Below, piece by piece: positions 4,781 to 55,954 of a DNA stretch of 64,000 nucleotides. The stretch is from Candidatus Aenigmatarchaeota archaeon (GTDB lineage: Archaea > Aenigmatarchaeota > Aenigmatarchaeia > GW2011-AR5). The stretch covers positions 59,171 through 123,170 of the forward strand of contig JACPRW010000001.1 of NCBI GenBank assembly GCA_016193585.1, written 5' to 3'. The translations under genes were made by a program, and so were the position numbers. A model generated the notes under the pieces. That model saw only the letters and a program-made list of their open reading frames with translations. It searched no databases and was not told the DNA's origin. How positions within the stretch are numbered: the stretch's first letter is position 1; each line of letters starts with the position of its first letter.

Positions 4781-4806
4781 AAGCCGCTGAAAGTAAAGGA
4801 AGGCAC

Positions 4807-11784: not shown

Positions 11785-11959
11785 GAAATCTTAAATTGTT
11801 TACAACAACAGTGCATTTGGAATCTATTTATTCGATGCATCATAATTAAGCGCCTTGACCGCCTTTGGCACCGAAGGCCGTGTACATGAAGACAAAGTTC
11901 TCGGAACCTCACCGTTTCATGCATGCTACCTTTAAAAATCTTTCCGCGTATATCGCGGC

Positions 11960-12663: not shown

Positions 12664-12826
12664 CTGCGTAGTTTATGTGACGTATTATTAGCAGTTATCT
12701 ATATGCAAACTGCGTTGTATGGTGAATTGCACTGGTTATGTCCTGATATTATTTGCAATTCACCTATAGAAAATTGCGCGTTAATACGACATAACAGAAA
12801 TTTTTATTTACTGGTTTCACTATAAA
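12655..12826. repeat. cluster of four TATAG-terminated hairpin elements (F2, F3-fragment, F5, F4-partial, F1-half)
   Basis: tatagataactgcgtagtttatgtgacgtattattagcagttatctata, then tgcaaactgcgttgta, then ggtgaattgca...tgcaattcacc, then aaaattgcgcgttaatacgacataa. The element supplies the stop codon (TAA 12661-12663) of the upstream ORF. Confidence 0.8.
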
Positions 12827-12849
12827 AGCTTTGCAGTTCTATCCTAACC

Positions 12850-14121: not shown

Positions 14122-14360
14122 ATAATTGCGCAGCTTATGTCGTATTAACGCGCAATTTTCTATAGGTGAATTGCAAATAATATCAGGACATATAGTGAAC
14201 CAAGTAAATAATCAGGTATTATATCTTGGTTCACTTACACCCAAAAAGCAAAGCTTTTTGGTGCACCGGAAAACTTTGTTTTCCGCGTGTAGCGGACAAC
14301 AAAAGTATTATGTCGGTATTCTTTTGTTGGTCCACTATAACCAGTGCAATTCACCATATA
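14117..14360. repeat. hairpin-element cluster: F4, then F5 split by a nested 150-bp element
   Basis: F5 appears intact at 41585-41632 and 55822-55870. Here it is interrupted after ...caggaca by an insert with TIRs TATAGTGAACCAAG / CTTGGTCCACTATA. Confidence 0.8.
14191..14340. mobile_element. about 150-bp MITE-like element nested in an F5 hairpin (TIR TATAGTGRACCAA, TA/ATA target duplication, three internal hairpins)
   Basis: A second copy lies at 57646-57793 in opposite orientation (roughly 95% identity by eye). The F5 halves on either side reconstitute the intact element. Confidence 0.7.
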
Positions 14361-14397
14361 ATCGTACCTTTAAAAACCTGACCCATCTATAACGTAT

Positions 14398-15405: not shown

Positions 15406-15409
15406 TGCT

Positions 15410-16510
15410 ATGATGAACAAAGCCGCTGGGGACGCCATCGTCAGCAAGTACAGCAGGAAGGCAATAACCATTGCAACGATCGGTTCCCACTCGGCGCTCG
15501 ACGTGTGCCGCGGCGCAAAAGATGAAGGGTTGCAGACCGTTGTCGTCTGCCAGAAAGGCAGGGAACAAACATACACGAAGCACTATAAGGTCGTAGTCGA
15601 CCACCCGCTGCTTGTCGACAAGTTCAGCGATGTCGCCAGCCCAACTGTGGTGGCGCAGCTGCAAAAGCTGAACGCGGTTTTTATCCCGAACCGCTCATTC
15701 GAAGTGTACGTGGGCGACTACAGCAGGATCGAAGCGATGGAAATCCCCTTCTTCGGCTCGCGCAGGCTCCTGCGTTTCGAGGAGCGGAACGAAAGCCCGA
15801 ACCAGTACACGCTCATGGAAAAGGCGGGCATCAGATTCCCGAAGCGTTTCGCATCGTCTGATGTTATAGATCGCCTCGTTATCGTCAAAGCAGCAGAGAG
15901 CGAGCGGAATTTCCAGCGCGAGTTCTTCTTTGCTTCATCGCCTGTAGATTTTGAGCGGAAAGCAAGGCAACTTATCGATAGGGGACTTGTTCATGGCAAG
16001 CAGCTCGACAGCGCTGTTATTGAAGAATTTGTTATCGGCGCACACATCAATTTTAATTTCTTCTACTCACCGCTCAGGAGGCGGCTGGAACTCATGGGCA
16101 CTGATTTCAGGCGGCAGACCAACCTTGATGGCTTGCTCAGGATTCCGGCGAAAGAACAGTCAGAATTTACCGTCAATCCAAGCCTCAAAGAAGCAGGCCA
16201 TGTCGCCGCGACCGTGCTCGAGAGCATGCTCGAGAAGGCATTCGGGCTGGGCGAAGCGTTTGTCGATGCGTGCCAACCCTATGGCGGCATCGTCGGCCCG
16301 TTTGCACTGCAGTCAATCATTACGCCCGGCCCGCCGAAAGAAGACATCGTCGTCTATGACGTCAGCCTGCGTATCCCCGGCTCGCCGGGCACGATGTTCA
16401 CACCCTATTCCTACTATCTACACGGCAAGCCGCTGAGCGTCGGCCGACGCATCGCCATGGAAGTGCGGGAAGCCGCGGAAACCGGGCAGCTGGAGAAGGT
16501 GGTGACGTAG
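15410..16510 (+). CDS. purP: PurP-family ATP-grasp paralogue
   Basis: KAITIATIGSHSALDVCRGAKDEGLQTVVVC... is the same family. The start is ATG 15410, or the track's GTG at 15398. Confidence 0.75.
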   Translation: MMNKAAGDAIVSKYSRKAITIATIGSHSALDVCRGAKDEGLQTVVVCQKGREQTYTKHYKVVVDHPLLVDKFSDVASPTVVAQLQKLNAVFIPNRSFEVYVGDYSRIEAMEIPFFGSRRLLRFEERNESPNQYTLMEKAGIRFPKRFASSDVIDRLVIVKAAESERNFQREFFFASSPVDFERKARQLIDRGLVHGKQLDSAVIEEFVIGAHINFNFFYSPLRRRLELMGTDFRRQTNLDGLLRIPAKEQSEFTVNPSLKEAGHVAATVLESMLEKAFGLGEAFVDACQPYGGIVGPFALQSIITPGPPKEDIVVYDVSLRIPGSPGTMFTPYSYYLHGKPLSVGRRIAMEVREAAETGQLEKVVT

Positions 16511-16618
16511 GGATTCTTTGATACATCCCTAGTAGACATAACATCTCGCAGCAGCACACAAGACGAACAAAAGTAGGCATAAGCGCTAGTTAGGCGAAAT
16601 TTATGGAGGAAGTAGAAA

Positions 16619-17353
16619 ATGGATATAAATCCTGAGAAATTCCATAGATCTATAAGTAAAGAGTTGAAGGTAATTCAGGATCGAGTTAGGAATCTTATGG
16701 GTAGTGCACATTGGGGAGAAGAAGGGAGGTATAAGGAAGCCGTATTAAGGAGCATTATAAGAAGATTCTTGCCCAAAAATGTAAGTATAGGCACAGGATT
16801 TATTTTAAAAAAAGAGGGCGACGAGATTAAAATATCAAATCAAATAGATATTATCATCTATGACAATACGTATCCAGTGCTGTTTGCAGAAGGCGATTTT
16901 TTAATAACTACACCAGCAAATGTAAAAGGAATAATAGAGGTCAAGACCAAGTTAAATTCTTCAGATGTAATGGATGTGGTTTCTAAAGCTACAAATAATG
17001 GGAAAGTAGTTGATAATGAGATATTTAGTGGAGTATTTGTTTATAACGAAGGAAATATAGTTAACAACAGCAACATAAGTGATAACCTTAAAAGTGCTTT
17101 AAAAGAGAGTAAAGGCGTTGTGAATCATATTTGTTTAGGGGAAGACATTTTCATTAAATTTTGGCCAAGGAATCCACAAAGTAACTTCCCGAATAAATAC
17201 AGTATCTACAGAATAAAAGACCTCTCCTTTTCTTATTTTATTTCTAACCTTGCTGAACAAACATCTGAGAGTAAGCTAAAAGAAAGATGGTGGTTTTTAT
17301 ATCCCATCGAAAAAGGCAAGGAGGAATATAAAATTGAGGATATTGATGTTTAA
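16619..17353 (+). CDS. PD-(D/E)xK nuclease-fold protein, possible defense/abortive-infection component
   Basis: 244 aa with SNQIDIIIYD ... GIIEVKTKL (D...ExK). The N-terminal region is helical. The gene is AT-rich with a GGAGG SD. Confidence 0.5.
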   Translation: MDINPEKFHRSISKELKVIQDRVRNLMGSAHWGEEGRYKEAVLRSIIRRFLPKNVSIGTGFILKKEGDEIKISNQIDIIIYDNTYPVLFAEGDFLITTPANVKGIIEVKTKLNSSDVMDVVSKATNNGKVVDNEIFSGVFVYNEGNIVNNSNISDNLKSALKESKGVVNHICLGEDIFIKFWPRNPQSNFPNKYSIYRIKDLSFSYFISNLAEQTSESKLKERWWFLYPIEKGKEEYKIEDIDV

Positions 17354-17559
17354 ACTTCGCCTAACATAGCATAAAAGGTTCGTGCCTCACAGCGCTCACC
17401 CAAATTTTTGCTTCGCAAAAACTTCTTTTATGCTGGAAACGTTCAACGAAATTCCGAACATTATTTCAGGCCGCCGACACGATAGCTCTTCGCTTCCAAG
17501 CCTCTGGAACGACAAGGCGAATTTATAAGGATTATCGGAAGAATTATTTATGTGATGTT

Positions 17560-18333
17560 GTGACAAGGAAGAAGGTATCCAAGAAAGATGTACATAAATT
17601 AAAAAAAGAGCCAAAATTTTCTCAAGAGATAAAAACTTCAGTAGTAATGCCTTTCAAATGTAAATTTTGTGGCAATCTTTTTGATATTGAGCACAGACTT
17701 CCAGAAAACCATACTTGTGAAGGTCTTTCTCAATGGAAAGAAAAACATTTGAAAGAATTTCATGAAGGTAAAAGTTCTATCGCATATGAAAACACGCTGG
17801 AACCAAAACATGAAGATTCAGGCTATAAAGATTCTATGAGAAACGCCCTTCGATGTGACTCAAAACAATTTTTCAAAGGAATACCAGAAAAATTCAATAA
17901 ACAGGCAATAAGATTGAATATTCATCGACTAATTCAAAAAAATATGAATGATATCGGCATATGGCTCATAGGCTTATTTATTATCTTTACAGCTTTCAAT
18001 CAGATACTAAAATACTCTATACTTGAAAGTATTTCATGGATTTTTGTTTACGTTGCAGAAATTATTTTTATATATAAGTTGATTAAGCGTGTTGACAAAA
18101 TAGAAGTAAATTCAGATTTGAGTATTTGGGGTTTAAAAATATTATCATTCATCTTTATCCTTATTGGAGTGTATATATTCTTATTCGGGTCTTTGGCATT
18201 AGCCACCGTCTATAGCCTTTATGTTCTCGGGCTTCTTGGTATAATAGCGCTAGGATTCTTTTCAATTGGCGCTTTTCTGATTTTCAAATTCAAACGAAGA
18301 AGTGGGAGCATTGTATGGGTCGGAAGAGCGTAG
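17560..18333 (+). CDS. Zn-finger (AN1-like CxxC...HxxxxxHxC) protein with two C-terminal TM helices
   Basis: [20 protein letters not shown] motif and a K-rich N-terminus, followed by two long hydrophobic helices. The start is uncertain (alternative Met at 17647). Confidence 0.45.
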
Positions 18334-18426
18334 AAGAAATTATTGTAATGAGAAAGTCGTTATAAAACTTATTTTGGCTAGCCTTAAATACTTATATAAA
18401 ATCATATATACATAAACTTATATAGA

Positions 18427-18699
18427 GTGGTAACCATGCAAAAAAGAGAAATTATACACTATCCTAACCTTAGCACAATGCTTGAAGTAGAGAAGGTCCT
18501 GAAAGAAGCAGACGGACCTATATCCAAGGAAGAACTGAAAAGGAGGCTTCCGACAAAGATTATGCACCAGACACTTAACCTTATTTTGGCATACATGGAA
18601 AACAGGGGGCTGATTTTATCAGGCCCGAAAGGCATACTCTGGACATACAATCCCAGCCCGAAACTGCAGAAAGCCATAGAAAAAGGCATTGAGATATGA
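18427..18699 (+). CDS. small winged-helix-like protein (putative antitoxin/regulator)
   Basis: 90 aa. Its stop overlaps the next gene's start (ATGA). Confidence 0.4.
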   Translation: MVTMQKREIIHYPNLSTMLEVEKVLKEADGPISKEELKRRLPTKIMHQTLNLILAYMENRGLILSGPKGILWTYNPSPKLQKAIEKGIEI

Positions 18700-19067
18700 G
18701 TAGAAATATCAACGTCATACTTAGCGAAGAAGCTACCAAGCAATATGAAGAACTGAACAGGATTGTTGGTGATGAAATAAAGAAAGGCATAACGAATTCT
18801 ATTCATCAGCAACTACTCAAATCCATAAAACAGAAATCTGAGCTTCTGAAAATCAATCCTCAGGCTGGAATACACATATCGAAAAAGCTTATACCGAAAA
18901 TCTATATAGACAAATACGATGTCGATAATCTGTGGAAAATAGATTTGTCTGGTTACTGGAGAATGACGTATACGTTGCGGACGACAGAAATAGAAATAAC
19001 GAACTTCGTTCTAGATATAGTAGATCACGTAACGTACGACAAAATACTTGGATACAAGAAAAAATAA
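18696..19067 (+). CDS. RelE/ParE-like toxin
   Basis: N-terminal ...SEEATKQYEEL...IKKGI...LKINP and C-terminal GYWRMTYTL...ITNFVLDIVDHVTY, matching the RelE/ParE fold pattern. Confidence 0.5.
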   Translation: MSRNINVILSEEATKQYEELNRIVGDEIKKGITNSIHQQLLKSIKQKSELLKINPQAGIHISKKLIPKIYIDKYDVDNLWKIDLSGYWRMTYTLRTTEIEITNFVLDIVDHVTYDKILGYKKK

Positions 19068-19466
19068 ACATCGCCTTGTAGCCAAAACCATTCTGAACCT
19101 GAAGAGCCACTTTCAGGCCGTCGGCGGTCCTGTTTTCAGTATTGTGCTGAATGCCTTGCATTCGCACATCTTCGGAGAAATATAATTTCTCCGAGATTCA
19201 GAAAATCTTCGATTTTCGAGAAATTTGCACGAACCTATGGTTCGGTGCAGTATTGTCGGAACTCTTCGCTTTCCTGCGGAAAGCTCGCTTTTCTTTCAGA
19301 AAAGTCGCTGAACAGCGATTAGAAGATCCGCTTCTGCGAAGCTCCATCCAAATGGCGATTATATAAAAAGAAATAATCGCCACTTCTTCTAATCGCATAC
19401 GTTATGCTCAATTCGTGGGCTCGCCGGTTAAAAAGTTTATTAAGCCAACTTAACTATTGATTAATT

Positions 19467-22159
19467 ATGGTAGACATTTTATATATTTTTTCAGGTTCAC
19501 CGTTGCTCTACATTCTCATATTAACATTAATTGCATTAGGTACATTCCTAATCTGGAAGTCATTCAAAACAAAATATAAATTCATTTTTTTAGGGGTTTT
19601 AGGCTTGGGAATAATCACTGTTCTCCTATTTTCTTTTATTAATACTCAACAAGGATCACCTGAACCGGATGCATCTGGAAAATCAGGCTACACATTGACT
19701 CTAAAAGAAGTGTGGGGTTCGAAGAGATGGATAAAGACCTTCGAAAGGCCCGGTAGTGATTATCCATTTGCAGTTCTGCAAACCTCTGACGGCGGGTATG
19801 TGGTTAGCGGGAGAACAAATAACGGCACGAAAGATTGCTATGGCGGGACCCCTATGATTTTAACATTCCTTTTCAAGACAGACGCGGATGGAAACAAAGT
19901 CTGGGAAAAGTTTCATTACGCTGGCAGAATAGTTTCAATCCAGCAGACTTCTGACGGAGGGCTGGTGGCTACAGGATCAATAGCTGCCACTGACACAGGA
20001 ATTGATGTTTACCTTGTAAAAACAGACGCGAAAGGCAGTATTACTTGGGAGAAGAGCTATGGTGAGAGTGATCCCGAGGGAGGATTTTCCGTCCAGCAGA
20101 CTTCTGACGGAGGGTATATCATTGCGGGGGGGGGACAGGTAGACGCTTGGGAAATCAAGGGATTTACTTGCTTAAAGTTGACAGCAACGGAAACAAATTG
20201 TGGAGCAGGATATTCGCCAAAGATTTAAAGACGGATGAGGAACCGCAACTGGTCCAGCAGGCTGCTGATGGAGGCTATATAGTTGTTGGGTGGAGGAAAT
20301 CGCAAGGAATGCCCAGCATAAAAGAAGACCCTAATGACCCATACATTGATGACGACGTCTATTTGCTAAGGACTGATTCATTAGGGAATAAGATTTGGGA
20401 GAAGACGATTGACGCATTTGGGAAGCGTGCAGACGAGAGGCTTGTGCATGATGCCTTGCAAACACCTGACGGAGGTTATGTAATTGTTGGAGGCTCAGCA
20501 CCCATTGTAAGATCAAATGGCGCACTACAAAGTTCGAGCCCCTATGTCTATTTGCTCAAGATTGATTCTGACGGGAACAAAACATGGACGAAGGATTATG
20601 GTATGGGAATTGGTCATTTAGTTCAGCTAACGTCCGACGGCGGTTACATAATCACTGGAGAGGTAATAGACAACGTGGGTCCAAATTACCTTGTGAAGAT
20701 AGGAACGGACAGTGACGGGAATAAGTTGTGGGAGAAACCCATTGAAATACTTAATACATATCAGGGCAAGGATTACCCAAATGTGGTTAAGCCAACCTTT
20801 GACAGCGGCTACATAGTCCTTGGAACCAGAGAATATGGCGACCTTATGGGATATGCCGGCATGCTGGAATCTGATACCCTGCTCATGAAGATAGAAGAAA
20901 CAGACACACTAAGATTGCCGGATTATGAGCGGGTACCGCCGCGTGAAACGAAGTTGCCCACCCAAGTTGAGCTACTGACTCCGACGGGAAAAGGATGGAT
21001 GAAGACAGTTGGAGGGAGTTTAGGCTCAAAGGCGCGAGCCGTGCAGAAGACATCTGACGGAGGCTATATAGTTGCAGGTTGGACTCATCGTAGTGTGACA
21101 GTACCTTATGGATTGAACGACACGACAGTCCTGACACAAAGGGAAGCATATATTGTTAAGACAGATGGAAATGGAAATAAAGTTTGGGAGAAGAGCTTTG
21201 GAGGAGATGGGTTTGAAGACGGGTTTTCAGTACAGCAAACCCCTGACAGCGGGTATATGGTTCTTGGAATCAAGGAGGCATATGCCTATCTGATAAAAAC
21301 AGATGCTTATGGAAACACGCAGTGGAATAAGACACTTGGTGAAAATTATGGTGATGTGGGTTTTTCACTCCTGCAGGCTTCTGACAGTGGATACATAATT
21401 GTTGGGATTACACAAGGCCATGGTGCGACCCCGTGTAACGCAAAAGAACCTGAGCGAGGCGCATCAGCTGATGTCTATATCATAAAGACTGATGCTGACG
21501 GAAACAAATTGTGGGAAAAAGTAATTGGCGGAACGCATATGGATATAGGATATTTTGTGCAGAAGACTTCTGACGGCAATTATATAATAACTGGAATGAC
21601 AGCTTCATTTAGTGAAAAAGGAGTCGAGGATGTTTACCTGCTTAAAATAGACAGCCATGGCAACAAATTGTGGGAAAAGGCAATTGGGGGGGACAAAAGC
21701 GAGATGGGCTATTCAGTACAACAAACTACTGACGGCGGTTATGTAATTGTTGGGCAAACAGTTTGGTCAATCAAAGGAGCAGATATGGGTGAAGGGGGTT
21801 ATGCTAGCCAGTCAGATATCTATTTAATAAAAACAGATACATACGGGAACAAAATCTGGGAAAAGACGTTTGGGGGGAGTTCGATGGATAGGGGATTTTC
21901 AGTGCAGCAGACTTCCGACGGCGGGTACATCATTACCGGAGACACAGACGGGCATCTTTACCTCTTCAAAACAGATGCAGACGGGAATAAAGTCTGGGAA
22001 AAGGCATTCAAAAGAGACGAGACCAAGCCATTCACGGGACGGTCTGTCAAGCAGACTACTGACGGCGGGTACATGGTTGTTGCAAATACGTTTTACACGT
22101 CAACACCTGCCTATCAGCCTATAATACTCATAAAGACAGACGCAAACGGGGATGTGTGA
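19467..22159 (+). pseudogene. secreted multi-repeat beta-propeller-like surface protein, frameshifted at a G9 tract
   Basis: It has an N-terminal TM/signal segment and 15 or more roughly 55-aa repeats (QQTSDGGYII.G....D.YL.KTD..GNK.WEK..GG). ORF 19467-20228 (frame 0) and ORF 20147-22159 (frame 2) share the same repeat and join if the G9 run at 20126-20134 gains one G. Confidence 0.6.
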
Positions 22160-25259: not shown

Positions 25260-26048
25260 TCACGCTACCTTCTCCCGCACATACCCCACCGCATTCCTGA
25301 AAATCTGCATGCCTCCGGCTTCCTTCGCCTCGCCGCGTGTCCAGCGCGGGTGGTTGGTAACGTCGTTAAAAGCTTCAGGGTGCGGCATCATGCCGAAGAC
25401 ACGGCCGGTTTCGTCGCAGATGCCGGCGATGCCATCAGTTGCTCCATTGGGATTCCAGGGATAGCCGGCTTCGGTTCCGTCAGGGCTGATGTACTGCAGC
25501 GCCACATGGCCGTTGTCATGCAGCCGCCGGCGCGTTGCGTTGTCAAGGGGAATCAGATTCCCCTCGCCGTGCCTGACCACCTGATACAGGCGGTCGATGC
25601 CTTTCGTGAACACGCACGGCGATTTCTTATTTGCTTTCAGGTGCACCCAGCGGTTTTCAAAGCGGCCAGACGCATTGGCCGCCAGCGTCACCGTCTGCGT
25701 GAAATAATCTTTGCCGAATGCCGGCAGCAGCCCAAGCTTTGCGATAATCTGAAACCCGTTGCATGCGCCGAATATGAGCTTGCCGTCCGCAATGAACTGC
25801 TCCAGATCAGGGCGCATTGTGTGCTTGAGTTTGATGGCAAATACCTTGCCGCCGGCGATGTCGTCCCCGAACGCAAAGCCGCCGGGTATGGCGAGAATAT
25901 GGAACGAATCGAGACTGATGTTCTTTTTCAGCAGGTCGCTGAAGTGCGCTATAGTGCTCTCCGCTCCTGCGTTCCTGAAGGAATGCGCCATTTCGTACTC
26001 GGCATTGAGGCCGTAGCCGGTGACGACAAGTACTTTGACGTTTTTCAT
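25260..26048 (-). CDS. purQ: FGAM synthase glutamine amidotransferase subunit
   Basis: MKNVKVLVVTGYGLNAEYEMA... class-I GATase. The ATG lies 2 nt after the purL stop (taactATG). Confidence 0.85.
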   Translation of the reverse strand: MKNVKVLVVTGYGLNAEYEMAHSFRNAGAESTIAHFSDLLKKNISLDSFHILAIPGGFAFGDDIAGGKVFAIKLKHTMRPDLEQFIADGKLIFGACNGFQIIAKLGLLPAFGKDYFTQTVTLAANASGRFENRWVHLKANKKSPCVFTKGIDRLYQVVRHGEGNLIPLDNATRRRLHDNGHVALQYISPDGTEAGYPWNPNGATDGIAGICDETGRVFGMMPHPEAFNDVTNHPRWTRGEAKEAGGMQIFRNAVGYVREKVA

Positions 26049-26050
26049 AG

Positions 26051-28957
26051 TTACCATCTCAGCGTTTGCTGCCACGACTCCTTCAGCTCGTTGACAGATG
26101 CACTGATAACTTCGTTTCCGTCAAGACCGCATACGGAAAACAAGCCATCAGGAGTCACGGTACCGATGCACGCCACAACACTGCCAGCTATGGTATGCTC
26201 GAATGCAACCCTGCTTTCAGGTAGGATGGTGACTATGAATCTCGATTGCGTCTCCGAGAAGAGCACGTAGTCATTGCGCTGTTCGCCGTTGTAGGGAACT
26301 TTTCTGAGGTCTATGCTCATCCCTAAATCACCTGCAAACGCCGTTTCAGCGAGCGCCACGCCAAGGCCGCCGTCAGAGCAGTCGTGACACGAAGCGACAA
26401 GCCCTGCTGTCATGGCTTTGTGCAAGCCTTTGTAGAGATTTTTTGCCGCAGGTGCGCTTACCCGTGGTACCTTATTGCCAACAAGGCTATGGTGCGCGAA
26501 ATATTCCGAGCCTCCGAGCTCGTCCTTTGTCTCGCCCAGAATGTACACAAGGTCGCCTGGATGCTTCGCGTCCATGGTGACCGCCGTGCGCACGTCAGCA
26601 ATCTTGCCGACGACGCTGAACAGCAGCGTGGGTGGTATGGAAATCCTTGTTTCGCCCCTGAAGTCGTTCTTCATGCTGTCCTTGCCTGAAATGCACGGAA
26701 CGCCGAAAGCAGTGGTGTAGTCGTACAGCGCCTTGTTCGCCCTCACGAGCTGCCCAAGCTTGTGCGCATCCTGTGTCGGGTCGGGCCAGCAGAAGTTGTC
26801 CAGCGCAGCAAGACAGTCAGGGTCAGCACCGACAGCAACTGCATTGCGTATCGCTTCGTCAAGCGCGCATGCGGCCATGTGGTACGCGTCGATGTCCCCA
26901 TACTTCGGGCAGATGCCGTGGCTGATGGCAATGCCTTCGTTCGATTCGAGCAGCGGCCGGACGACTGCTGCATCGCTTGGCCCGTCGTTGTGCGCGCCGG
27001 TGAGCGGCTTCACGACGCTGCCTCCCTGAACCTCGTGGTCGTACTGGCGTATGACGTATTCCTTCGAGCAGATGTTGAGACGGGAAAGTAATGCCATTAA
27101 TGCGTCCTTCAGGTCAGGCTCGGCAAAGCTGGCATCTGGCCATTGTTTCTCTTCCCACCGGGCGCTGAGCTTCATTCGCGGTGCCCCGTCGTGGAGGAAT
27201 TCCATGTCGAGGTACGCGACCGTTGCGCCGTTGTGCAGTGCATGGAATTTTCCTGTGCCGGTGAATGTGCCGATGGCCGTCGCCTCGACGCTGCGCAGCT
27301 TCGCCAGTTCCATGAATTCCTTTTCCTTGTCCCTGCTCACTGCAAGCACCATGCGCTCCTGCGATTCCGAGAGCAGTATCTCCCATGGCGCGAGTCCCGG
27401 GTACTTGAGCGGGCATTTGTCCAGGTGAATTTCGCAGCCGCCGCTCACGCGCGCGGTCTCGCCGACTGCTGATGACAAGCCGCCGCCACCGACGTCGGTG
27501 ATGAACCGGTACAGGCCCTTGTCCCGCGCCTCGAGCAGAAAATCGTACATGATTTTCTGGGTTATGGGATCGCCGAGCTGCACGGCGCTCACCGGCGAGC
27601 TTTCGCTTATTTCTGCGGACGAAAAGGTGGCGCCGTGGATGCCATCCTTTCCTGTCCTACCGCCTGCGACAACAATGAGGTCGCCGGGAACGACCGTCTT
27701 CGCATGAGACGGTTTCCCGTTGATGGCGTGCGGCATGATGCCGCAGGTGCCGCAGTACACCAGCGGCCTGCCGAGGAAACGGTCGTCGAAAACGATGCTG
27801 CCGTTCACCGTCGGAATGCCGAGCTTGTTGCCGCCGTGCTCGACGCCGCGCCGCACGCCCTCGAAAATGCGCTTCGGGTGCAGGACTCCTTTGGGCAGCG
27901 GCTTGTCGTAGTAGGGGCTTGCGAAGCAAAAAACATCGGTGTTGCACACAAGCCGTGCGCCAAGCCCGGCGCCGATGACGTCGCGGTTGACGCCGACGAT
28001 GCCGGTGAGCGCCCCGCCGTACGGCTCGAGCGCGGAGGGCGCGTTGTGCGTTTCCACCTTCATCGCAATGTTCCAGTTATCATTAAAGCGTATGATGCCG
28101 GCATTGTCCGAAAAGACCGAGACGAGCCACGGCTTCGCAATTTCCTTTGTCGATTTTTTGACGTAGGTGTCGAACAGGGAATCTATCCGCTCTTCGTTTC
28201 CGTCTTCCCTGTAGGTGATTGCTGCGTTGAAAATCTTGTGCTTGCAGTGCTCGCTCCACGTCTGCGCGAGCGCCTCGAGCTCGACGTCGGTAGGGTCCGC
28301 AAGTCCCAGAGCTTCACGCTGTGCACGCACGTCAGGGTTCGAAAAGTGGCGCCTGATGGCCTGCATTTCCCCAAGGGTGAGTGACAGGAGCTTCGATGAA
28401 CTGAGCTGCACCAGCTCATTGTCCGGCAGGTCGACGCTGACCGGTTCTGCATGCGGCGTGCGGTAGAGCTCGACTTTTGGCATCATTGTTGTAGTCGCGT
28501 CGCTTGGGCTCCTGACTTCCCAGCGCTCGATGAGCTCGTTTGCGAGCAGCTTGGTCGCGATGCGTTCCGCGTCGCCTCTGCTCAACGTCCCGCTGACAGC
28601 ATACTGGCGTGATGTATACACATCAGCAGCAATGCCGAGCATGTCGGTTATCGCTTCTTTTGATGTCTTCCCGACGTTGTCGGTGACGCCAGGCTTGAAG
28701 CCGACTTCAATGAGCCAGTTATAGCCACCAAGAACTGGCGCATCGATGGCGAACGTCTGGGTGACAGCATCGGCAAAGAGCTGCGCCGCAAGCGTGGTGA
28801 GCTGCTCATAGCGGAGGTTCGCATCAACAGTATAGACATCAGCAGTTCGCACCGAACCGACATGAAGACTGAGGTCGGCTTCTATTCGCTTGGCGACGGC
28901 ATTGCCGAGCGCGTCCGGGATTGCCGGCTTGCATGCCACTTCGATGCGGTGCGCCAT
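26051..28957 (-). CDS. purL: FGAM synthase PurL with two N-terminal PurS-like domains (PurS-PurL fusion)
   Basis: 968 aa. The N-terminal roughly 170 aa contains two PurS-like units (KPAIPDALGNAVAKRIE... and KPGVTDNVGKTSKEAITDMLG...LANELIERWEV), followed by the AIRS/AIRS_C duplicated FGAM synthetase body. Confidence 0.85.
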   Translation of the reverse strand: MAHRIEVACKPAIPDALGNAVAKRIEADLSLHVGSVRTADVYTVDANLRYEQLTTLAAQLFADAVTQTFAIDAPVLGGYNWLIEVGFKPGVTDNVGKTSKEAITDMLGIAADVYTSRQYAVSGTLSRGDAERIATKLLANELIERWEVRSPSDATTTMMPKVELYRTPHAEPVSVDLPDNELVQLSSSKLLSLTLGEMQAIRRHFSNPDVRAQREALGLADPTDVELEALAQTWSEHCKHKIFNAAITYREDGNEERIDSLFDTYVKKSTKEIAKPWLVSVFSDNAGIIRFNDNWNIAMKVETHNAPSALEPYGGALTGIVGVNRDVIGAGLGARLVCNTDVFCFASPYYDKPLPKGVLHPKRIFEGVRRGVEHGGNKLGIPTVNGSIVFDDRFLGRPLVYCGTCGIMPHAINGKPSHAKTVVPGDLIVVAGGRTGKDGIHGATFSSAEISESSPVSAVQLGDPITQKIMYDFLLEARDKGLYRFITDVGGGGLSSAVGETARVSGGCEIHLDKCPLKYPGLAPWEILLSESQERMVLAVSRDKEKEFMELAKLRSVEATAIGTFTGTGKFHALHNGATVAYLDMEFLHDGAPRMKLSARWEEKQWPDASFAEPDLKDALMALLSRLNICSKEYVIRQYDHEVQGGSVVKPLTGAHNDGPSDAAVVRPLLESNEGIAISHGICPKYGDIDAYHMAACALDEAIRNAVAVGADPDCLAALDNFCWPDPTQDAHKLGQLVRANKALYDYTTAFGVPCISGKDSMKNDFRGETRISIPPTLLFSVVGKIADVRTAVTMDAKHPGDLVYILGETKDELGGSEYFAHHSLVGNKVPRVSAPAAKNLYKGLHKAMTAGLVASCHDCSDGGLGVALAETAFAGDLGMSIDLRKVPYNGEQRNDYVLFSETQSRFIVTILPESRVAFEHTIAGSVVACIGTVTPDGLFSVCGLDGNEVISASVNELKESWQQTLRW

Positions 28958-28960
28958 CGT

Positions 28961-29989
28961 TTACACCAGGACCATATCCTTCTTTTCATGACTGATGATA
29001 ATATGCTGTTTTCCGGTAACCGATCCTATGATTTCGGCGTGCTTGAGCAGGCCGAGAGCAGTGTCGCTGTCTTCTTGCCTGACGATTACCGCAAATCCCC
29101 ATCCCATGTTGAACGTCGAGAACATTTCCTTTGCCGTGATGTTGCCGGCTTCCTGAATAACATGGAATATTGATTGCGGATGGAAATTAGAAAATGCGAA
29201 GCCTTTGCCCGGAGCCTGCATCAGTTTCCCAAATTTGAGGTAGGCATCACCGGTGATGTTGACTGCGGCAAGGACAGTAACTTCTTTCATGAGCTTCATG
29301 AAATCCTGGACATAAATGGCCGTCGGCTCAAGCGCCTCGAAGACGAGCTCCCTGTCCATGCCATCGACGGTGCTATGCGCCTCGTACGCGCCTCCCCATT
29401 CCCTGAACAGCACTTTTCTCGCGAGCGACATGCCGTTTGCGTGAAGGCCGGAACTTCGCAAACCGATGACAGCGTCCCCCTGCTGCAGCGCAGTCCCGTA
29501 AATTATCGACTCTTTTTGCACTTCTCCCACGCAGTCGCAGCCGATGTCATAGGCTGCCGCGAGCAGCTCAGGAACGTCGGCAATCTCCCCGCCTACCATC
29601 GGGCACCGTGCGGCAGCGGCGCCGTCTGCAAGTCCCTTCTGCAGCTTCCCGATAAGCCCTGCGTCAGATTTTCTGACGCTCAGCGTATTAGTTAATGCAA
29701 TCGGCTCGGCGCCGCTGCGGATGCAGTCGTTGACGACCATAGCAACCGCGTCGATGCCAATGGTGTCGTGCTTGCCGGCGAGCTGAGCAAGCATCGCTTT
29801 CGTGCCGACGGTGTCAGCTGTTTTTACCTGATATGCCGTGGCGGTGGGATAGAGCGTGTTGAACGGTGTGGAAACAAGCGGCCCGTATTTGCTGTAGGAA
29901 TGCGTGCCGTCGAACGCAAGGAGCTTTTTCGCTGCCGCGCGCGCCTCGCGGTCGACCCCTGCGTCCTTGTACGTTGGCATAATAACCAT
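28961..29989 (-). CDS. purM: Phosphoribosylformylglycinamidine cyclo-ligase (AIR synthetase)
   Basis: (MVI)MPTYKDAGVD...AIRS family. The start is ATG 29989 or 29980. Confidence 0.88.
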   Translation of the reverse strand: MVIMPTYKDAGVDREARAAAKKLLAFDGTHSYSKYGPLVSTPFNTLYPTATAYQVKTADTVGTKAMLAQLAGKHDTIGIDAVAMVVNDCIRSGAEPIALTNTLSVRKSDAGLIGKLQKGLADGAAAARCPMVGGEIADVPELLAAAYDIGCDCVGEVQKESIIYGTALQQGDAVIGLRSSGLHANGMSLARKVLFREWGGAYEAHSTVDGMDRELVFEALEPTAIYVQDFMKLMKEVTVLAAVNITGDAYLKFGKLMQAPGKGFAFSNFHPQSIFHVIQEAGNITAKEMFSTFNMGWGFAVIVRQEDSDTALGLLKHAEIIGSVTGKQHIIISHEKKDMVLV

Positions 29990-30037
29990 TCTGATGAATC
30001 CTTTAATCTTTTTATTGGGAAGCTGCCATGTGGTAGC

Positions 30038-30886
30038 ATGCAGGAAGCTCTGAAACCGTTTCTCAGGGACTTCAAGCGATGCCTGCACGAATCAAGATTC
30101 AGGAACGACATCGTTTCAGTAGTGCTCCTCGGCTCAGGTGCGCGCGGGGACTGGATAAGGGGCGAAAGCGATATCGACTTCATCGTCGTCGTGAAAGACA
30201 GGAGGATGAAGCGTCCTGTTGCCGCATTTCTGTGGAAACTTGTCAAGAAGCTTGACAGGAAGCACAAGCTCCGGCTGAACCTCAGTGATAAGACCTATAA
30301 CAGCATTCTTTTAAATGCAATCATGAAAGTCGAGGCGTTCTTCCTGCAGCGGGTGCCGCTGTACGTGCTCGCTGAAGAGGAGTTCGACCTGGTGAACAGG
30401 AAAATTCGCGAGCCGCGCATATGGTTCATCGCCACAGTTATAGGCTCGCTGCCGCAGTTCCTTCTCAACCTGAAGCATACCGGGAAGACGATGTACGGGA
30501 AGGATTTGCTGAAGGATATCAGGGTTTCGTTCGGGTTGCTTGATGAGCTGAAAATCATCCTAATTCCCTACTATTATCTCGGACTTGCAGCCTTGCTGCT
30601 GCCCTTTTCGCCAAAGCAGGCAGCGCAGCACGCGATTAAGGCATGCCTTCTCGAGACAGACGATGAACTGCTTCTGCTCCACAGGAAGCTGGGAAGCTAC
30701 CGGAGAGACGAGCAGCTGTACGAACGCCTCTTCCGCGGAAGCCCGACAATACAGCATATCCGGAAGTGCCTGCGCTATCGCAGGATGCTCAGCCGCAAAA
30801 TTATCGGCTACGAGGAAGCGACGGAGTTCGTGCTCGATTCCGCCAGGTTTGTCGCACGAAGCCGTATCATGGTCTGCAGGCCATAG
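30038..30886 (+). CDS. minimal nucleotidyltransferase (MNT) domain protein with a C-terminal HEPN-like Rx6H motif
   Basis: LLGSGARGDWIRGESDIDFIVVV is the pol-beta NTase motif. The C-terminal RGSPTIQH fits the HEPN Rx4-6H motif. Confidence 0.6.
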   Translation: MQEALKPFLRDFKRCLHESRFRNDIVSVVLLGSGARGDWIRGESDIDFIVVVKDRRMKRPVAAFLWKLVKKLDRKHKLRLNLSDKTYNSILLNAIMKVEAFFLQRVPLYVLAEEEFDLVNRKIREPRIWFIATVIGSLPQFLLNLKHTGKTMYGKDLLKDIRVSFGLLDELKIILIPYYYLGLAALLLPFSPKQAAQHAIKACLLETDDELLLLHRKLGSYRRDEQLYERLFRGSPTIQHIRKCLRYRRMLSRKIIGYEEATEFVLDSARFVARSRIMVCRP

Positions 30887-50690: not shown

Positions 50691-50785
50691 AGCCACCGAA
50701 GGGAATTGAACCCTTAACCTGCAGTTCAATCGGAAGGTTTCTCCTCTTACAAAACTGCTGCTCTGCCAGGTTGAGCTACGGTGGC
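50691..50785 (-). tRNA. tRNA-Thr(UGU) with 21-nt intron in the anticodon loop
   Basis: Hand-folded as GCCACCG-TA-GCTC-AACCTGGCA-GAGC-A-GCAGT-TTTGTAA-[agaggagaaaccttccgattg]-ACTGC-AGGTT-AAGGG-TTCAATT-CCCTT-CGGTGGC-T. Every stem pairs and the anticodon is TGT. Confidence 0.8.
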
Positions 50786-52014: not shown

Positions 52015-53217
52015 GTGATGCCAATGGGAGTCGATCCGTTCTCATTGCTGGTGCTGTTTGCCGTCACCGTCTTCGCCGGTTATATTAGCTCCTTTATCTT
52101 CGTGAAAACCGGCGTGTCAGACGTCATCTGGCTTCTCGGCTTCGGCAGCAGCATTGCCCTATTCGGCCTCGCTAACCCGGCACTCTTCATCATCCTGTCG
52201 CCGTTCCTGCTAGCCCTCGCCCTGCTCATCATCCTGTTCGATGCGGGCCTCAACCTGGACTTCTACCAGCTCCGCCGCGCGCCGCGGAGCCTGCTGTTCG
52301 CCGGGGCAGAGTTCGTGTTCTCCGTGCTCAGCGTCGCAGCCATCGGCATCCTGTTCCTTCACCTGCCTCCGCTGCTTGCGCTCCTGCTCGGCACCATGGT
52401 GAGCAGCGCCAGCTCGCCAGCTGCCGTCATGATTGTCGCGCAGCTGCACCTTAAGCCAGCCACCATGGCACTCCTCAATCTCGGCTCGGCCATAGCCAAC
52501 CCGCTTGCCATTGTCGCCGCGGTCGCCCTTGTCAACCTTGCAGTGCCGGCGACTACAGGCTACAGCACAGCAGCTGATGTCGTCGTTGCCTTCACCATTG
52601 GCGCAGTTGTCGGTCTCGTGGCCGGCATCTTCTGGCTCTTCGCCCTCGACCGGCTCAAAGGGAAGCCGTTCGACTACCTGCTGACGCTTGCCGTCCTTTT
52701 CGCCCTGTATGCGTTCGTCGTCACCGTGGAGGGCTCGGGCGCTGTAGCCGCGCTCTTGTTCGGTCTGGTGCTGGGCAACGGCGCAACGTTCTCCGGCATG
52801 CTCCGGCTGAAGCGGCGGCTTGCAGTGAACTACCTGCTCAAGACCTTCCAGAAGGAGTCATCGTTCTTTATCCGCTCATTCTTCTTCATCTACATCGGCG
52901 TGGTGGCAGCGGTAACCCCTGCATATGCGCTCTACGGACTGGCCATAGCAGCGGTGCTGGCTGGGCTTCGCTATCTTGCAGTGCTCATGGCAACCGTCAG
53001 GATGGAAATCACGGCATTCGAGACCAGAATAATGAGCAGCCTTGCGTCAAGGGGCCTGGCAGCTGCGGTGCTTGCGCAGCTCCCGGCTGTCTACGGCGTT
53101 GCGAACGCGGACCTCTACGTCAACATCGTCTTCGTCGTCATCGTCGCGACCGTCCTGTATACGACGGTCGCGGTGAAACTGCTGGCAGCTCCCGAAAGCC
53201 AAAAACACGAAAAATAG
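52015..53217 (+). CDS. cation:proton (Na+/H+) antiporter
   Basis: 400 aa, polytopic, with LFDAGLNLD and a CPA-family helix pattern. Confidence 0.65.
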   Translation: MMPMGVDPFSLLVLFAVTVFAGYISSFIFVKTGVSDVIWLLGFGSSIALFGLANPALFIILSPFLLALALLIILFDAGLNLDFYQLRRAPRSLLFAGAEFVFSVLSVAAIGILFLHLPPLLALLLGTMVSSASSPAAVMIVAQLHLKPATMALLNLGSAIANPLAIVAAVALVNLAVPATTGYSTAADVVVAFTIGAVVGLVAGIFWLFALDRLKGKPFDYLLTLAVLFALYAFVVTVEGSGAVAALLFGLVLGNGATFSGMLRLKRRLAVNYLLKTFQKESSFFIRSFFFIYIGVVAAVTPAYALYGLAIAAVLAGLRYLAVLMATVRMEITAFETRIMSSLASRGLAAAVLAQLPAVYGVANADLYVNIVFVVIVATVLYTTVAVKLLAAPESQKHEK

Positions 53218-53331: not shown

Positions 53332-53703
53332 TTATTTACTCGAAGCCAGTGCCCATATCGCCTTCAAGGCGACGATGACAGCACCAGGAACCACGAAGAC
53401 AGCGACGTTATCCACGACCCTGTCCAAGAGAGCCCCGATGTTGGCAATGTTTATGACACTGAAGTTTGCTGTACCCGAAACCACGAGGGCTACGGCAGCA
53501 ATAAGGAACGGTGTGGTCTCTCGTTCAGTGATGTTCAGCATACCCACCGCGATTCCCAGCGCAACCAGGAGCAGGGTTGCTGTTCCTGCTGTGTTTGCGT
53601 CAAGCGCTCCCATCTGTGATGCGATTCCCGCAAACACGGCGATGAGGACACCTGCCAGGAATGCGTACTCTCCCATTTTCTGCATTTCCATGTTTGTTTT
53701 CAC
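53332..53703 (-). CDS. small membrane protein
   Basis: 123 aa with 3-4 hydrophobic helices. Confidence 0.4.
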   Translation of the reverse strand: MKTNMEMQKMGEYAFLAGVLIAVFAGIASQMGALDANTAGTATLLLVALGIAVGMLNITERETTPFLIAAVALVVSGTANFSVINIANIGALLDRVVDNVAVFVVPGAVIVALKAIWALASSK

Positions 53704-53730
53704 CGTTACCTCTGTTATAAATAGACATAT

Positions 53731-54441
53731 TTAAAGGTTGCGCCTTGAGGCAAGGTTTAAATATGGTACTGCCGCCGAACCAGCGCCGTTGCCGGCATGT
53801 GCAGGGCAATGCAAGCTTTCGTAGGCGCACGTGACGCTGCTTCCCCGGTCATGGGACAGCTTTTTTGCCGCGTACATAGCGGTGTCAGCCCGTCCAAGGA
53901 GTTCATGAGGGGTTGCCGGCTGTTTTCTGCGCGGGTTGTACGTTGCAGTGCCCGCTGCCAGCGTGATGCGGTGGGCACCGTCGAACGGGTAGCTGTCGAT
54001 GGAAGTTCCCAACCGGTTTGCCGCTGCTATGGCGCCGCGCCTGCCGGTTTCAGGCATGATGACGACAAATTCGTCGCCGCCATAGCGGATGACACTGTCA
54101 GAGTTCCGCATCCCGGTGACAAAGATAGCCGCGGCAGTGCGCAACAGCTCATCCCCAGCCTGATGGCCATAGGTGTCGTTGAACGGCTTGAGTCCGTTGA
54201 TGTCGAGCATGACGACAGACAATGACCGCTGGTAACGGGAGGCCCGTGCTGTTTCATCAAAGAGTATGCCATCCAGTTCCTCGCGACTGTACACGCCGGT
54301 AAGCGTGTCGTAGCGGGGCATTCGTACCTTGGTCCACCACCTGAGATTGACGAGCAGCCGCTCTGCCACCACCTGTCTGAGGAACGCGGCTACCGCTGGG
54401 TCATGCTCTGCCAACCCAATGATAGATTGTTGTATATCCAT
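53731..54441 (-). CDS. GGDEF-domain diguanylate cyclase (no obvious sensor domain)
   Basis: ...LDINGLKPFNDTYGHQAGDELL...RYGGDEFVVIM...ADTAMYAAKK are canonical GGDEF motifs. Confidence 0.75.
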   Translation of the reverse strand: MDIQQSIIGLAEHDPAVAAFLRQVVAERLLVNLRWWTKVRMPRYDTLTGVYSREELDGILFDETARASRYQRSLSVVMLDINGLKPFNDTYGHQAGDELLRTAAAIFVTGMRNSDSVIRYGGDEFVVIMPETGRRGAIAAANRLGTSIDSYPFDGAHRITLAAGTATYNPRRKQPATPHELLGRADTAMYAAKKLSHDRGSSVTCAYESLHCPAHAGNGAGSAAVPYLNLASRRNL

Positions 54442-54553
54442 GACAACCGCCTATACCATAACACTGTAGTATAAAAAAGTTCCGGTATGTGGAACTGTAG
54501 TGCTCTTTCGTTTTCCCCAAGCTTTTAGTACGCGCACGACAAAACCTTAGGAA

Positions 54554-54830
54554 GGGGTCATGGTATAACCAGGTAGTACGGCAGGCTCCAGACGGCTCCT
54601 TTTCTTCGAAAGAAAAGTAGCCGGCAGTCAAAAGAACGAACTGGAGCTTTGAGCTGCGTAGGTAGCAATGATAAGATTCCGCAGGAGGGAATCAGGAAGA
54701 ACTTGATCTTCAAAGAGCAGAGCTCTTTGAGAGCTCAAAGAAGCGAAGCTTCTTTGCAGCAACTGAAGGGAATCTGGGTTCCCTGCGGTTAAGAAACCTG
54801 CTAGTCGGGGTTCAAATCCTCGTGGCCCCA
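54554..54830 (+). tRNA. tRNA-Trp(CCA) with an approximately 204-nt intron (54592-54795) carrying C/D-box-like motifs
   Basis: Hand-folded: acceptor GGGGTCA/TGGCCCC, D-stem GTAT/GTAC, anticodon stem GCAGG ...(intron)... CCTGC, loop CTCCAG|A, T-arm CGGGG-TTCAAAT-CCTCG, discriminator A. The intron contains ATGATAA (C-box-like), CTGA (D box) and TGGAGC complementary to the anticodon region. Confidence 0.65.
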
Positions 54831-54920: not shown

Positions 54921-55214
54921 ATGGAGCTTGACCGGTTCCCTGTCTATTTCCTCATGGCGCTGCTCATCTACATTTTTGTGCTCCTTGCCGACCTCGGCAG
55001 CTTCATCTTCGCGTTCGCCAGCACCGGGCTGCTGTCGCCTGAATTTTATTTCATCAGCCTGTTCATGTTCCTGCCCCTGCTCGTTCTTGCAGCCCGCTGG
55101 AAGACGGACTTCGGCAGGAACCACGGGTCGCTGCTCGGGGTCGCGTTTGTCGCGGCCGTCCTGCTCGACATCATGGTCAACCTGGCAATCTTTCTGCCGC
55201 TGCTGCTGACTTAA
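54921..55214 (+). CDS. small membrane protein
   Basis: 97 aa with 3 hydrophobic helices. Confidence 0.4.
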   Translation: MELDRFPVYFLMALLIYIFVLLADLGSFIFAFASTGLLSPEFYFISLFMFLPLLVLAARWKTDFGRNHGSLLGVAFVAAVLLDIMVNLAIFLPLLLT

Positions 55215-55743: not shown

Positions 55744-55910
55744 TATAGTAAACTGCGTTACTTAGGTTACATGATATAGATAATTGCGCAGCTTATGTCG
55801 TATTAACGCGCAATTTTCTATAGGTGAATTGCAAATAATATCAGGACATAACCAGTGCAATTCACCATACAACGCAGTTTGCAGTCACATAAACTACGCA
55901 GTTATCTATA
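55744..55910. repeat. hairpin-element cluster F3(half)-F4-F5-F3(half)-F2(half)
   Basis: tatagtaaactgcgttacttaggttacatgata | tagataattgcgcagcttatgtcgtattaacgcgcaattttctata | ggtgaattgca...tgcaattcacca | acaacgcagtttgcag | cacataaactacgcagttatctata. Confidence 0.8.
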
Positions 55911-55954
55911 TGTAGTGAACATTCTGTAGGAGACAGTGCCACACCCTGAGCAAT

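Follow-up and report, generated by a model that had tools for sequence, protein, structure and literature searches.

A gene for a GGDEF-domain protein is described here in the DNA of Candidatus Aenigmatarchaeota archaeon, within a stretch of 64,000 nucleotides of contig JACPRW010000001.1 (assembly GCA_016193585.1) which is hereafter called the window. As read from sequence and structural model, the domain, motifs and fold of the protein are those of an active, product-inhibited diguanylate cyclase (DGC). The gene is resident in the archaeal chromosome, where it adjoins a gene for a small membrane protein with four transmembrane (4-TM) segments, and the same pairing recurs on other archaeal contigs. 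Its coding sequence (CDS) is not orthologous to that of the GGDEF genes which occupy the corresponding locus in relatives, despite homologous flanks. The joint explanation that best accounts for these observations, and which as a whole is considered fairly probable, is that of a soluble and competent DGC belonging to an archaeal chromosome, dimerised through a helical stalk, inhibited by its product, coupled to the 4-TM protein and having replaced an older gene in place.

Domain, motifs and predicted fold

The NCBI record of the protein, which comes from a metagenome-assembled genome (MAG), is entitled [quoted passage not shown]. The catalytic domain is recognised by the Pfam model PF00990 with 124.7 bits (E 3.9e-36, cut-off 23.8) over profile positions 3-157 of 161, and by the NCBIfam model TIGR00254 with 140.4 bits (cut-off 37.4). 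No NCBIfam equivalog cut-off is reached. In the same protein, Pfam and hydropathy reveal no second Pfam domain, no sensor domain and no TM segment. The initial annotation had spoken of a protein with no sensor domain and a short N-terminus of about 45 residues, in agreement with the GGDEF domain alone that Pfam finds and the approximately 43 residues, predicted as two helices, that precede it.

In an alignment of the protein with 115 database homologues (116 sequences), all the positions that are invariant or nearly invariant in the family are kept, namely, D45, D80, N88, G92-H93, G96, R112, D115, R119, G121-G122-D123-E124-F125, D186, and K193. The claim of the initial annotation that the catalytic motifs are intact (RYGGDEF and the substrate residues) is thereby borne out, and the I-site is intact besides; the degenerate A-site that it had envisaged on closer alignment is not what is seen, R119-Y-G-G-D-E-F125 being complete. 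The columns of D80, N88, D97, and K193 are invariant or at least 90% conserved. From what is known of PleD and WspR, D80 is taken to be the Mg2+ ligand, N88 and D97 the guanine-binding residues and K193 the phosphate-binding residue; the reference residues are presumably D327, N335, D344, K442, and R446 of PleD, a correspondence which is assumed from general knowledge and not drawn from structural superposition. The I-site reads R112-N-S-D115 and is followed by S-V-I-R-Y and then by GGDEF, which gives a five-residue spacing after the Asp. A location of RxxD five residues before GG(D/E)EF is the spacing rule for I-sites, as known from PleD and WspR. The guanine-specificity position is Asp97, within GHQAGD. 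Hypr GGDEF proteins, which make cyclic GMP-AMP (cGAMP), carry Ser or Thr at the position of PleD D344; a Hypr cGAMP synthase was considered for the window protein and rejected, as the residue is Asp97.

The AlphaFold2 model of the monomer has a mean predicted local distance difference test (pLDDT) score of 85.9 and consists of a stalk and a GGDEF fold with a tail that is disordered from about residue 208, the disorder comprising the 29 C-terminal residues. The longer of the two stalk helices spans residues 15-39. Stalks of this kind hold the dimers of the structural neighbours together, and the stalk of the window protein is presumed to be a dimerisation element. The top Foldseek matches of the model are PadC, GCN4-WspR, GcbC, PleD, and the coiled-coil plus GGDEF form of DgcB, the matches with this last architecture being the GCN4-WspR fusion 3i5c and DgcB 6ttr. 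A phmmer search of the PDB sequences gives GGDEF-domain proteins only, with DGCs on top (6d9m 5.5e-24, PleD 2.5e-22, WspR, DgcZ). In the proposed mechanism, two monomers would pair via helix 15-39 of the stalk, each GGDEF domain would bind one GTP-Mg2+ through D80, N88, D97, E124, and K193, and the dimer would condense the two GTPs to cyclic di-GMP (c-di-GMP), whose binding to the RNSD I-site would limit the output.

Among 5.8 billion protein clusters the window protein is a singleton. Its next best match is 43% identical over the domain only, and the named matches all belong to bacteria (Gammaproteobacteria, Omnitrophota, Chloroflexota, Nitrospirota, and Syntrophobacteraceae). Two short GGDEF proteins were considered as archaeal relatives: P0011, similar in length, was rejected for its bacterial context (LysR, histidine kinase, and exosortase genes), and P0002 is uninformative, being a truncated open reading frame (ORF) on a 3-kb contig.

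Archaeal residence and the recurrent gene pair

The archaeal or archaeal-type genes of the window comprise those for L31e, eIF6, SBDS, Rrp4, Rrp41, Rrp42, PCNA, a cupin-type glucose-6-phosphate isomerase, and CysRS, together with a near-complete purine pathway which includes the archaeal PurP (DUF1297/DUF1246); two intron-containing tRNAs are encoded as well. The GGDEF gene has a GC content of 0.584, and of 0.654 at third codon positions (GC3), like the neighbouring host genes. In the literature, the default explanation of such a gene is bacterial contamination of an archaeal MAG or an assembly chimera: Galperin & Chou treat all MAG-borne archaeal HD-GYP and GGDEF cases as possible contamination, and every named nearest homologue of the window protein is indeed bacterial. 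For the present locus this explanation is effectively refuted. The other identifiable genes of the window are archaeal on both sides of the GGDEF gene, the intron-containing tRNA-Trp is only 113 bp away, a length of 157.9 kb is on record for the source contig, and the composition is host-like. The region is identical, with 0 mismatches, in three Logan assemblies from separate runs, one of which (L003) bridges the HIT gene, the tRNA-Trp, and the GGDEF gene. In addition, the corresponding locus holds a GGDEF gene in related archaeal contigs from other projects. The view of the initial annotation that a bacterial contaminant was unlikely is fully supported by the archaeal markers on both sides, the spliced tRNA-Trp, and the three identical assemblies.

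Pfam, NCBIfam, and PADLOC have no family for the 4-TM protein. Its homologues number 16 in the protein database and 184 in the metagenomes of the Joint Genome Institute (JGI), and the family is marked by a conserved loop, LNI-x-E-K/R-E-T-T-P-F-L. A module was defined in this analysis as a GGDEF gene adjoining a member of the 4-TM family on an archaeal contig. Such a module is present in the window and in the loci L005, L012-L016, and L024-26, identified as archaeal through PCNA, exosome genes, or aEF-2; the pairing occurs as well in L023 and L043, two loci not assigned to a domain of life. Outside the window, a GGDEF gene stands beside a 4-TM homologue in at least five demonstrably archaeal contigs, four of which, from one lineage, carry a clade of GAF-like-GGDEF proteins (described below).

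The closest 4-TM homologue from another genome with readable context is P0124, which is 76% identical over the C-terminal 56% of the query. It is encoded on CAYTIO010000001.1 of GCA_964437845.1 (L005), with a GGDEF gene immediately upstream. L005 is the closest relative found (identity of 86% for Rrp41, 80% for SBDS, and 76% for the TM protein) and keeps the order of the window, that is, GGDEF-TM, orf245, metallo-beta-lactamase, SBDS, Rrp4, Rrp41, and Rrp42. In L012/13, L014/15, and L016, which are long archaeal contigs with PCNA 63% and CTP synthase 70% identical to the window proteins, the GGDEF gene, the 4-TM gene, and a convergent gene for a Na+/H+ exchanger are arranged as in the window; the exchangers are 50-56% identical to that of the window, and the outer flanks differ.

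The JGI relatives were obtained by a scan with the TM-family alignment, which led to 80 fetched loci, 55 of them informative (at least 800 bp upstream). The partner in L023 is a protein of 199 residues with a coiled coil and GGEEF, encoded on the same strand as the TM gene, whereas in L043 (246 residues) and in L024-26 (220 residues) the GGDEF gene is divergent from it; L026 is archaeal, with 674 bits for aEF-2 vs 226 for EF-G. The window protein, the 334-residue clade, and the proteins of L023, L043, and L024-26 are mutually only 28-37% identical and amount to at least five divergent types. Archaea are otherwise nearly devoid of known GGDEF genes, and the presence of at least five such types beside one TM family argues for selection on the pairing rather than chance. 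Family members without a GGDEF neighbour occur in L006-L011 and in most JGI loci. One of them, on the 730-kb contig Ga0209514_10000015 (L034:4001-5750), has the 4-TM gene and a convergent Na+/H+ exchanger gene with no GGDEF gene upstream; the pairing of the TM protein with the antiporter therefore exists independently of the cyclase.

From the recurrent arrangement we infer that the cyclase works with the 4-TM protein and probably also with the convergent Na+/H+ exchanger. The 4-TM protein would recruit or regulate the sensor-less cyclase, or would itself be the target, and c-di-GMP would be tied in this way to membrane or ion homeostasis. A reading as a defence system was rejected: PADLOC gives no match for the GGDEF protein, the TM protein, the exchanger, or P0141, its sole match being the nearby HIT protein, to a generic HIT model. 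A search for synteny via PCNA in the GTDB genome collection gave one relative (L004; PCNA 59%, CTP synthase 72%) in which the order is lost after PCNA, and is uninformative for the GGDEF locus.

Origin of the gene and competing explanations

At the same locus, relatives carry a clade of longer GGDEF proteins (334-338 residues), of which P0137 and P0139-P0141 are encoded on NCBI MAG contigs (GCA_964437845.1, GCA_053536995.1, GCA_053536475.1, and GCA_053537135.1) and P0138 is known from a Logan contig only. The protein of L005 has 338 residues, the motif RYGGEEF, a Pfam score of 82 bits, and four relatives at 66-70% identity, three of which were placed on long contigs (L012/13, L014/15, and L016). 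Like the window gene, the genes of P0137 and P0139-P0141 lie on archaeal contigs upstream of a 4-TM gene, with a convergent exchanger in three of the four, and all five clade proteins have GGEEF and conserve the Mg- and guanine-binding residues. Unlike the window protein, they possess an extra N-terminal domain of about 140 residues, RxxxD instead of RxxD at the I-site, and an insertion of 8 residues; they are only 28-31% identical to the window protein and are not grouped with it in the tree. The extra domain is tentatively described as GAF-like. The evidence for this fold, AlphaFold2 pLDDT of 60-84 and a Foldseek E of ~1e-4, is weak and derives from a model of six sequences which is poor overall (pLDDT 49) and usable in its N-terminal third alone; the nearest bacterial matches of the clade are GAF-GGDEF proteins, in line with this assignment. 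Judged from its sequences, the clade is under purifying selection, the catalytic residues being invariant and the ratio of nonsynonymous to synonymous substitution rates (dN/dS) 0.27-0.32.

The window protein is 29% identical to the GGDEF protein of L005, with no homology between the coding DNAs. It scores 33 bits with a hidden Markov model (HMM) of the clade, 124.7 with Pfam, and 120 with bacterial proteins (43% identity), and in a neighbour-joining (NJ) tree of 76 domains it stands with the clade in 0 of 40 bootstraps. At the DNA level, the TM gene is homologous to that of L005 (71%), and a 14-mer and a TATA box upstream of the GGDEF gene are common to both loci. A further match, 45 bp at 78% by blastn, covers the last 11 codons of the window gene and the spacer and is essentially intergenic in L005. 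The homology stops at 54517 and resumes at 53763, with none in between. The non-coding flanks are better conserved than the CDS, which is unexpected under vertical descent; replacement is therefore the simplest reading. The locus would originally have held a GAF-like-GGDEF gene, and in this lineage its CDS would have been exchanged for a shorter one; the window gene is thus probably a bacterial-type gene for a stalk and a GGDEF domain that took the place of the older gene. The extension of a new ORF into old intergenic DNA would explain the disordered C-terminal tail. Remnants of the GAF-like domain were not found by tblastn elsewhere in the window, and around 49.8-56.2 kb there are neither att-like direct repeats nor an integrase, only short repeats at chance level. 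Homology of the termini of the window protein to the 334-residue clade, suggested by MAFFT motifs (AVxxAFxR and P-LN-R-N), was not accepted, with shuffle p = 0.047 at the N-terminus and 0.63 at the C-terminus.

The opposite view, that the window gene is a true ortholog of the 334-residue clade which lost its sensor domain and diverged very fast, has in its favour the shared locus, orientation, and promoter spacing, as well as the marginal N-terminal similarity to the linker helix of the clade (shuffle p ~0.047). It is nevertheless hardly probable, since the flanking non-coding DNA is 78-100% conserved around a CDS without DNA homology and with 29% protein identity, the window protein, with 125 Pfam bits vs 82 for the clade, is the nearer of the two to the bacterial consensus, which is the opposite of what runaway divergence would give, the two never join in the tree, and the similarity of the C-terminal tails is not significant. 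Little more credence is given to a recent neutral passenger, brought by horizontal gene transfer (HGT) near tRNA genes and toxin-antitoxin (TA) modules, with no role in the host and with an adjacency to the TM gene that would be a coincidence of an insertion hotspot. The singleton sequence, the two low-GC TA pairs which also lie in the region from tRNA-Tyr to tRNA-Trp, the 29 disordered C-terminal residues, and the position of the last 11 codons in formerly intergenic DNA would suit a passenger. However, the ORF is intact with all the catalytic residues, the GC3 is host-like, an archaeal promoter lies at the proper distance, five related genomes (that of the window and four others) have a GGDEF gene at the same position, at least five unrelated GGDEF types beside the same TM family point to selection on the pairing, and flanking direct repeats and an integrase were not found.

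Several observations weigh against the joint explanation of a stalk-dimerised cyclase that replaced an older gene and is coupled to the 4-TM protein. The tree in which the window protein never joins the archaeal clade (0/40 bootstraps), and which bears on the phylogenetic check for a bacterial origin proposed by the initial annotation, is a crude NJ tree. Selection on the window protein is not measurable, because no homologue of this singleton exceeds 43% identity. Two extra residues separate K193 from R199 in comparison with the usual KxxGR, so that R199 is present at an offset position. An antiporter gene is missing from L005, and a GGDEF neighbour is found in only 5 of the 55 informative JGI loci of the TM family (three distinct), so that the TM protein does not depend on GGDEF. 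Pathway partners were sought with Pfam in about 60 ORFs of the window, with Rfam on the window, and in the gene tables of L005 and L012-L016, which together represent a fraction of each genome. Neither EAL, HD-GYP, PilZ, or MshEN-type domains nor a c-di-GMP riboswitch were found in the 64-kb window or in ~60 kb of Pfam-annotated flanks belonging to the loci L005 and L012-L016, the one finding of Rfam on the window being tRNA-Tyr; the search for EAL, HD-GYP, and PilZ partners that the initial annotation had suggested thus came out negative in the window and in the annotated L005 and L012-L016 loci. The DNA covered thus offers no known means of degrading or reading the signal, and in the literature c-di-GMP has never been detected in an archaeon.

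A GGDEF-fold protein without c-di-GMP signalling, which would make cGAMP in the manner of Hypr enzymes or another dinucleotide, or would act as a regulatory or scaffold protein in a receptor-less host, draws on the same two points, namely, that no phosphodiesterase, PilZ, or riboswitch was seen in the DNA covered and that c-di-GMP has not been demonstrated in archaea, and on the existence of GGDEF enzymes with altered specificity (Hallberg 2016). This alternative is improbable. At the specificity position the protein has Asp (G96-D97), the residue of canonical DGCs, where Hypr proteins have Ser; its A-site and its I-site both conform to the canonical motifs, something unusual among degenerate GGDEFs of the receptor type; and the intact RxxD implies binding of c-di-GMP itself. 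Returning to the cyclase coupled to the 4-TM protein, a more far-reaching extension of it would be a DPANN-labelled archaeal lineage with a c-di-GMP pathway of its own, in which GGDEF cyclases, minimal or GAF-linked, were captured repeatedly from bacteria and retained beside the 4-TM gene, the 4-TM protein is a new membrane partner (receptor, activator, or anchor), the antiporter provides a link to ion or pH homeostasis, and turnover is non-canonical, the last because no EAL or HD-GYP is seen. This extension is regarded as rather unlikely; if true, no c-di-GMP system would have been known in Archaea before it, and a new class of effector would be added.

Features of the window and relation to known systems

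Table: Coordinates of the GGDEF gene, its parts and its surroundings in the window
Feature	Coordinates	Strand	Remarks
GGDEF diguanylate cyclase gene	53731..54441	-	236 aa, ATG start, range includes stop codon; exact match to NCBI MBI2970905.1
GGDEF catalytic domain	53857..54312	-	residues 44-195 (Pfam envelope); AlphaFold2 pLDDT 89-98
A-site R119-Y-G-G-D-E-F125	54067..54087	-	columns invariant or nearly so in the 116-sequence alignment
I-site R112-N-S-D115 (RxxD)	54097..54108	-	allosteric product-inhibition site; R112 and D115 at least 90% conserved in the same alignment
N-terminal two-helix stalk	54325..54438	-	residues 2-39; AlphaFold2 helices 2-13 and 15-39, pLDDT 70-89
TATA box TTTTTATA	54470..54477	-	archaeal type; 29-36 nt before GGDEF ATG
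Left conserved 14-mer TACTAAAAGCTTGG	54517..54530	-	common to L005; 24-37 nt upstream of tRNA-Trp 5' end
Right homology boundary with L005	53719..53763	-	last 11 GGDEF codons, intergenic spacer and hairpin
Small 4-TM membrane protein	53332..53703	-	directly downstream of GGDEF gene; 119-123 aa (119 from ATG 53691); four hydrophobic segments
Na+/H+ (cation/proton) exchanger	52015..53217	+	convergent with GGDEF-TM pair; PF00999 86 bits
tRNA-Trp(CCA)	54554..54830	+	intron ~204 nt (~54592-54795); divergent from GGDEF gene, 113 bp upstream of its start
3-TM protein	54921..55214	+	97 aa; hydropathy
tRNA-Tyr, intron-containing	50691-50785		found by ARAGORN and Rfam
MazE/PemK toxin-antitoxin pair	51413-50829		flanks tRNA-Tyr; GC below host
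AbrB/MazE-like antitoxin and PIN toxin	50642-50071		flanks tRNA-Tyr; GC below host

The position of the GGDEF gene between small membrane proteins and tRNA-Trp, already noticed in the initial annotation, is confirmed by the 4-TM and 3-TM genes and by the tRNA after in silico splicing. The GGDEF gene would be transcribed from an archaeal TATA promoter. The position of its TATA box implies, as a prediction from the DNA, a leaderless or short-leader transcript; equivalent boxes lie at -31 to -30 before the CysRS gene, orf339, and the 4-TM gene, and in the orthologous locus of L005 the box stands at the same distance. The conserved 14-mer is probably the TATA box and B recognition element (BRE) of the divergent tRNA promoter. 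At the right boundary, a hairpin (53726-41/53750-65) is formed by a 16-nt inverted repeat, CATATTTAAAGGTTGC / GCAAGGTTTAAATATG, with a loop of 8 nt. It overlaps, at 53726-53765, the GGDEF stop codon and the TTTAAATA box preceding the 4-TM gene, and the stretch is 78% conserved in the orthologous intergenic region of L005. At the end of the L005 contig (L005:1-120, GCA_964437845.1), upstream of the GGDEF gene, the opposite strand carries the promoter-like 14-mer and, after it, a hairpin, CAAAGACTTTCTTAAGAAAGTCTTTG, which resembles the start of the tRNA-Trp intron of the window; the contig ends there, and no tRNA is callable.

The tRNA-Trp is split after position 37/38, and as an intron-containing gene of this kind it is a mark of archaea. 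Removal of the intron in silico leaves 73 nt, which ARAGORN calls Trp(cca); the unspliced gene is missed by ARAGORN and Rfam because of the intron of ~204 nt, and its 3' half is detectable. The intron is unusually long and holds C/D-box-like elements (AUGAUAA ... CUGA), with a weak Rfam match to a C/D snoRNA (21.7 bits, E 0.36).

Elsewhere in the window, a 21-nt motif, AAACTACGCAGTTATCTATAT, has 7 intergenic copies (12654, 34346, 39755, 40507, 55774, 55891, and 62460) vs 0 expected. Two of them, at 55774 and 55891, lie 88 nt apart as an inverted repeat, and the motif may be a dispersed element similar to a miniature inverted-repeat transposable element (MITE) or else a shared regulatory site. 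The peptide RSLCRINAQFSIGELQIISGH is common to two ORF fragments, at 14126-14392 and 55784-55915. A low-GC island at ~16600-20200, with gene GC of 0.32-0.43 vs ~0.55 elsewhere, encodes a DUF6602 protein, an AN1 zinc-finger protein, and small ORFs, and is probably foreign or mobile DNA. A PemK toxin very similar to that of the window occurs near the GGDEF-TM pair of the unrelated JGI locus L043. The near-complete de novo purine pathway (2353-16510 and 25260-30088) comprises PurC, PurB, PurN, PurD, PurF, PurA, PurP, PurQ, PurL, and PurM, with CTP synthase encoded beside these genes. Aenigmarchaeota, which belong to DPANN, are usually described as being without nucleotide biosynthesis, and the purine pathway is for this reason notable.

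According to reviews, GGDEF, EAL, and HD-GYP are absent from archaea except for one ORF of Methanocella, and cases from MAGs are suspected contamination; the statement of the initial annotation that c-di-GMP proteins are uncommon in archaea agrees with this literature, in which nothing specific on GGDEF proteins of Aenigmarchaeota or DPANN archaea was found. Textbooks and reviews regard c-di-GMP as exclusively bacterial and dismiss archaeal database matches as contamination. The present locus is a clean counter-example, based on an intact cyclase gene on an archaeal contig, independent assemblies, the retention of GGDEF genes at the locus in relatives, and the purifying selection indicated for the clade. 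The repeated pairing of unrelated GGDEF proteins with one membrane-protein family offers a concrete candidate partner, so that archaeal use of c-di-GMP becomes testable, and the locus would document the replacement in place of a signalling gene by a foreign homologue between conserved flanks. A contamination-proof archaeal GGDEF protein, a recurrent archaeal GGDEF-4TM(-antiporter) module, and such an apparent displacement in place were not found in the literature searched.

Among archaeal proteins of c-di-GMP signalling, the literature accepts RCIX2274 of Methanocella arvoryzae (REC-PAS-PocR-GGDEF-HD-GYP) alone. Like the window protein, it has a GGDEF domain in an archaeal genome and is presumably of bacterial origin. 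By its description it is set apart as a large sensor of several domains, an HD-GYP hydrolase among them, encoded in a complete methanogen genome, whereas the window protein is a minimal stand-alone cyclase of a DPANN-labelled lineage in a recurrent gene pair. PleD of Caulobacter, the reference DGC, agrees with the window protein in every residue for catalysis and for the binding of Mg and guanine, and also in the primary I-site (phmmer E 2.5e-22, Foldseek TM-score ~0.62-0.67, identity ~32-34%); unlike it, PleD carries two REC domains and depends on phosphorylation for its activation. The DGCs built of a stalk or coiled coil and a GGDEF domain, that is, the WspR GGDEF domain with a GCN4 zipper (3i5c), DgcB of C. 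crescentus (6ttr), and SiaD of P. aeruginosa (7e6g), have in common with the window protein a single GGDEF domain after a helical dimerisation element, a canonical GG(D/E)EF A-site, and an RxxD I-site, with Foldseek E of 1e-16 to 1e-18; the NCBIfam model of SiaD gives 114 bits over the domain of the window protein. All three are bacterial proteins; input reaches WspR (P. aeruginosa) and DgcB through REC or other modules of their own, and the partner SiaC acts as the switch of SiaD. The window protein differs from all three in having no known input, an archaeal host, and an uncharacterised 4-TM protein as candidate partner. The window protein adds a new member to a well-known family, with an architecture closest to DgcB, SiaD, and the catalytic unit of WspR.

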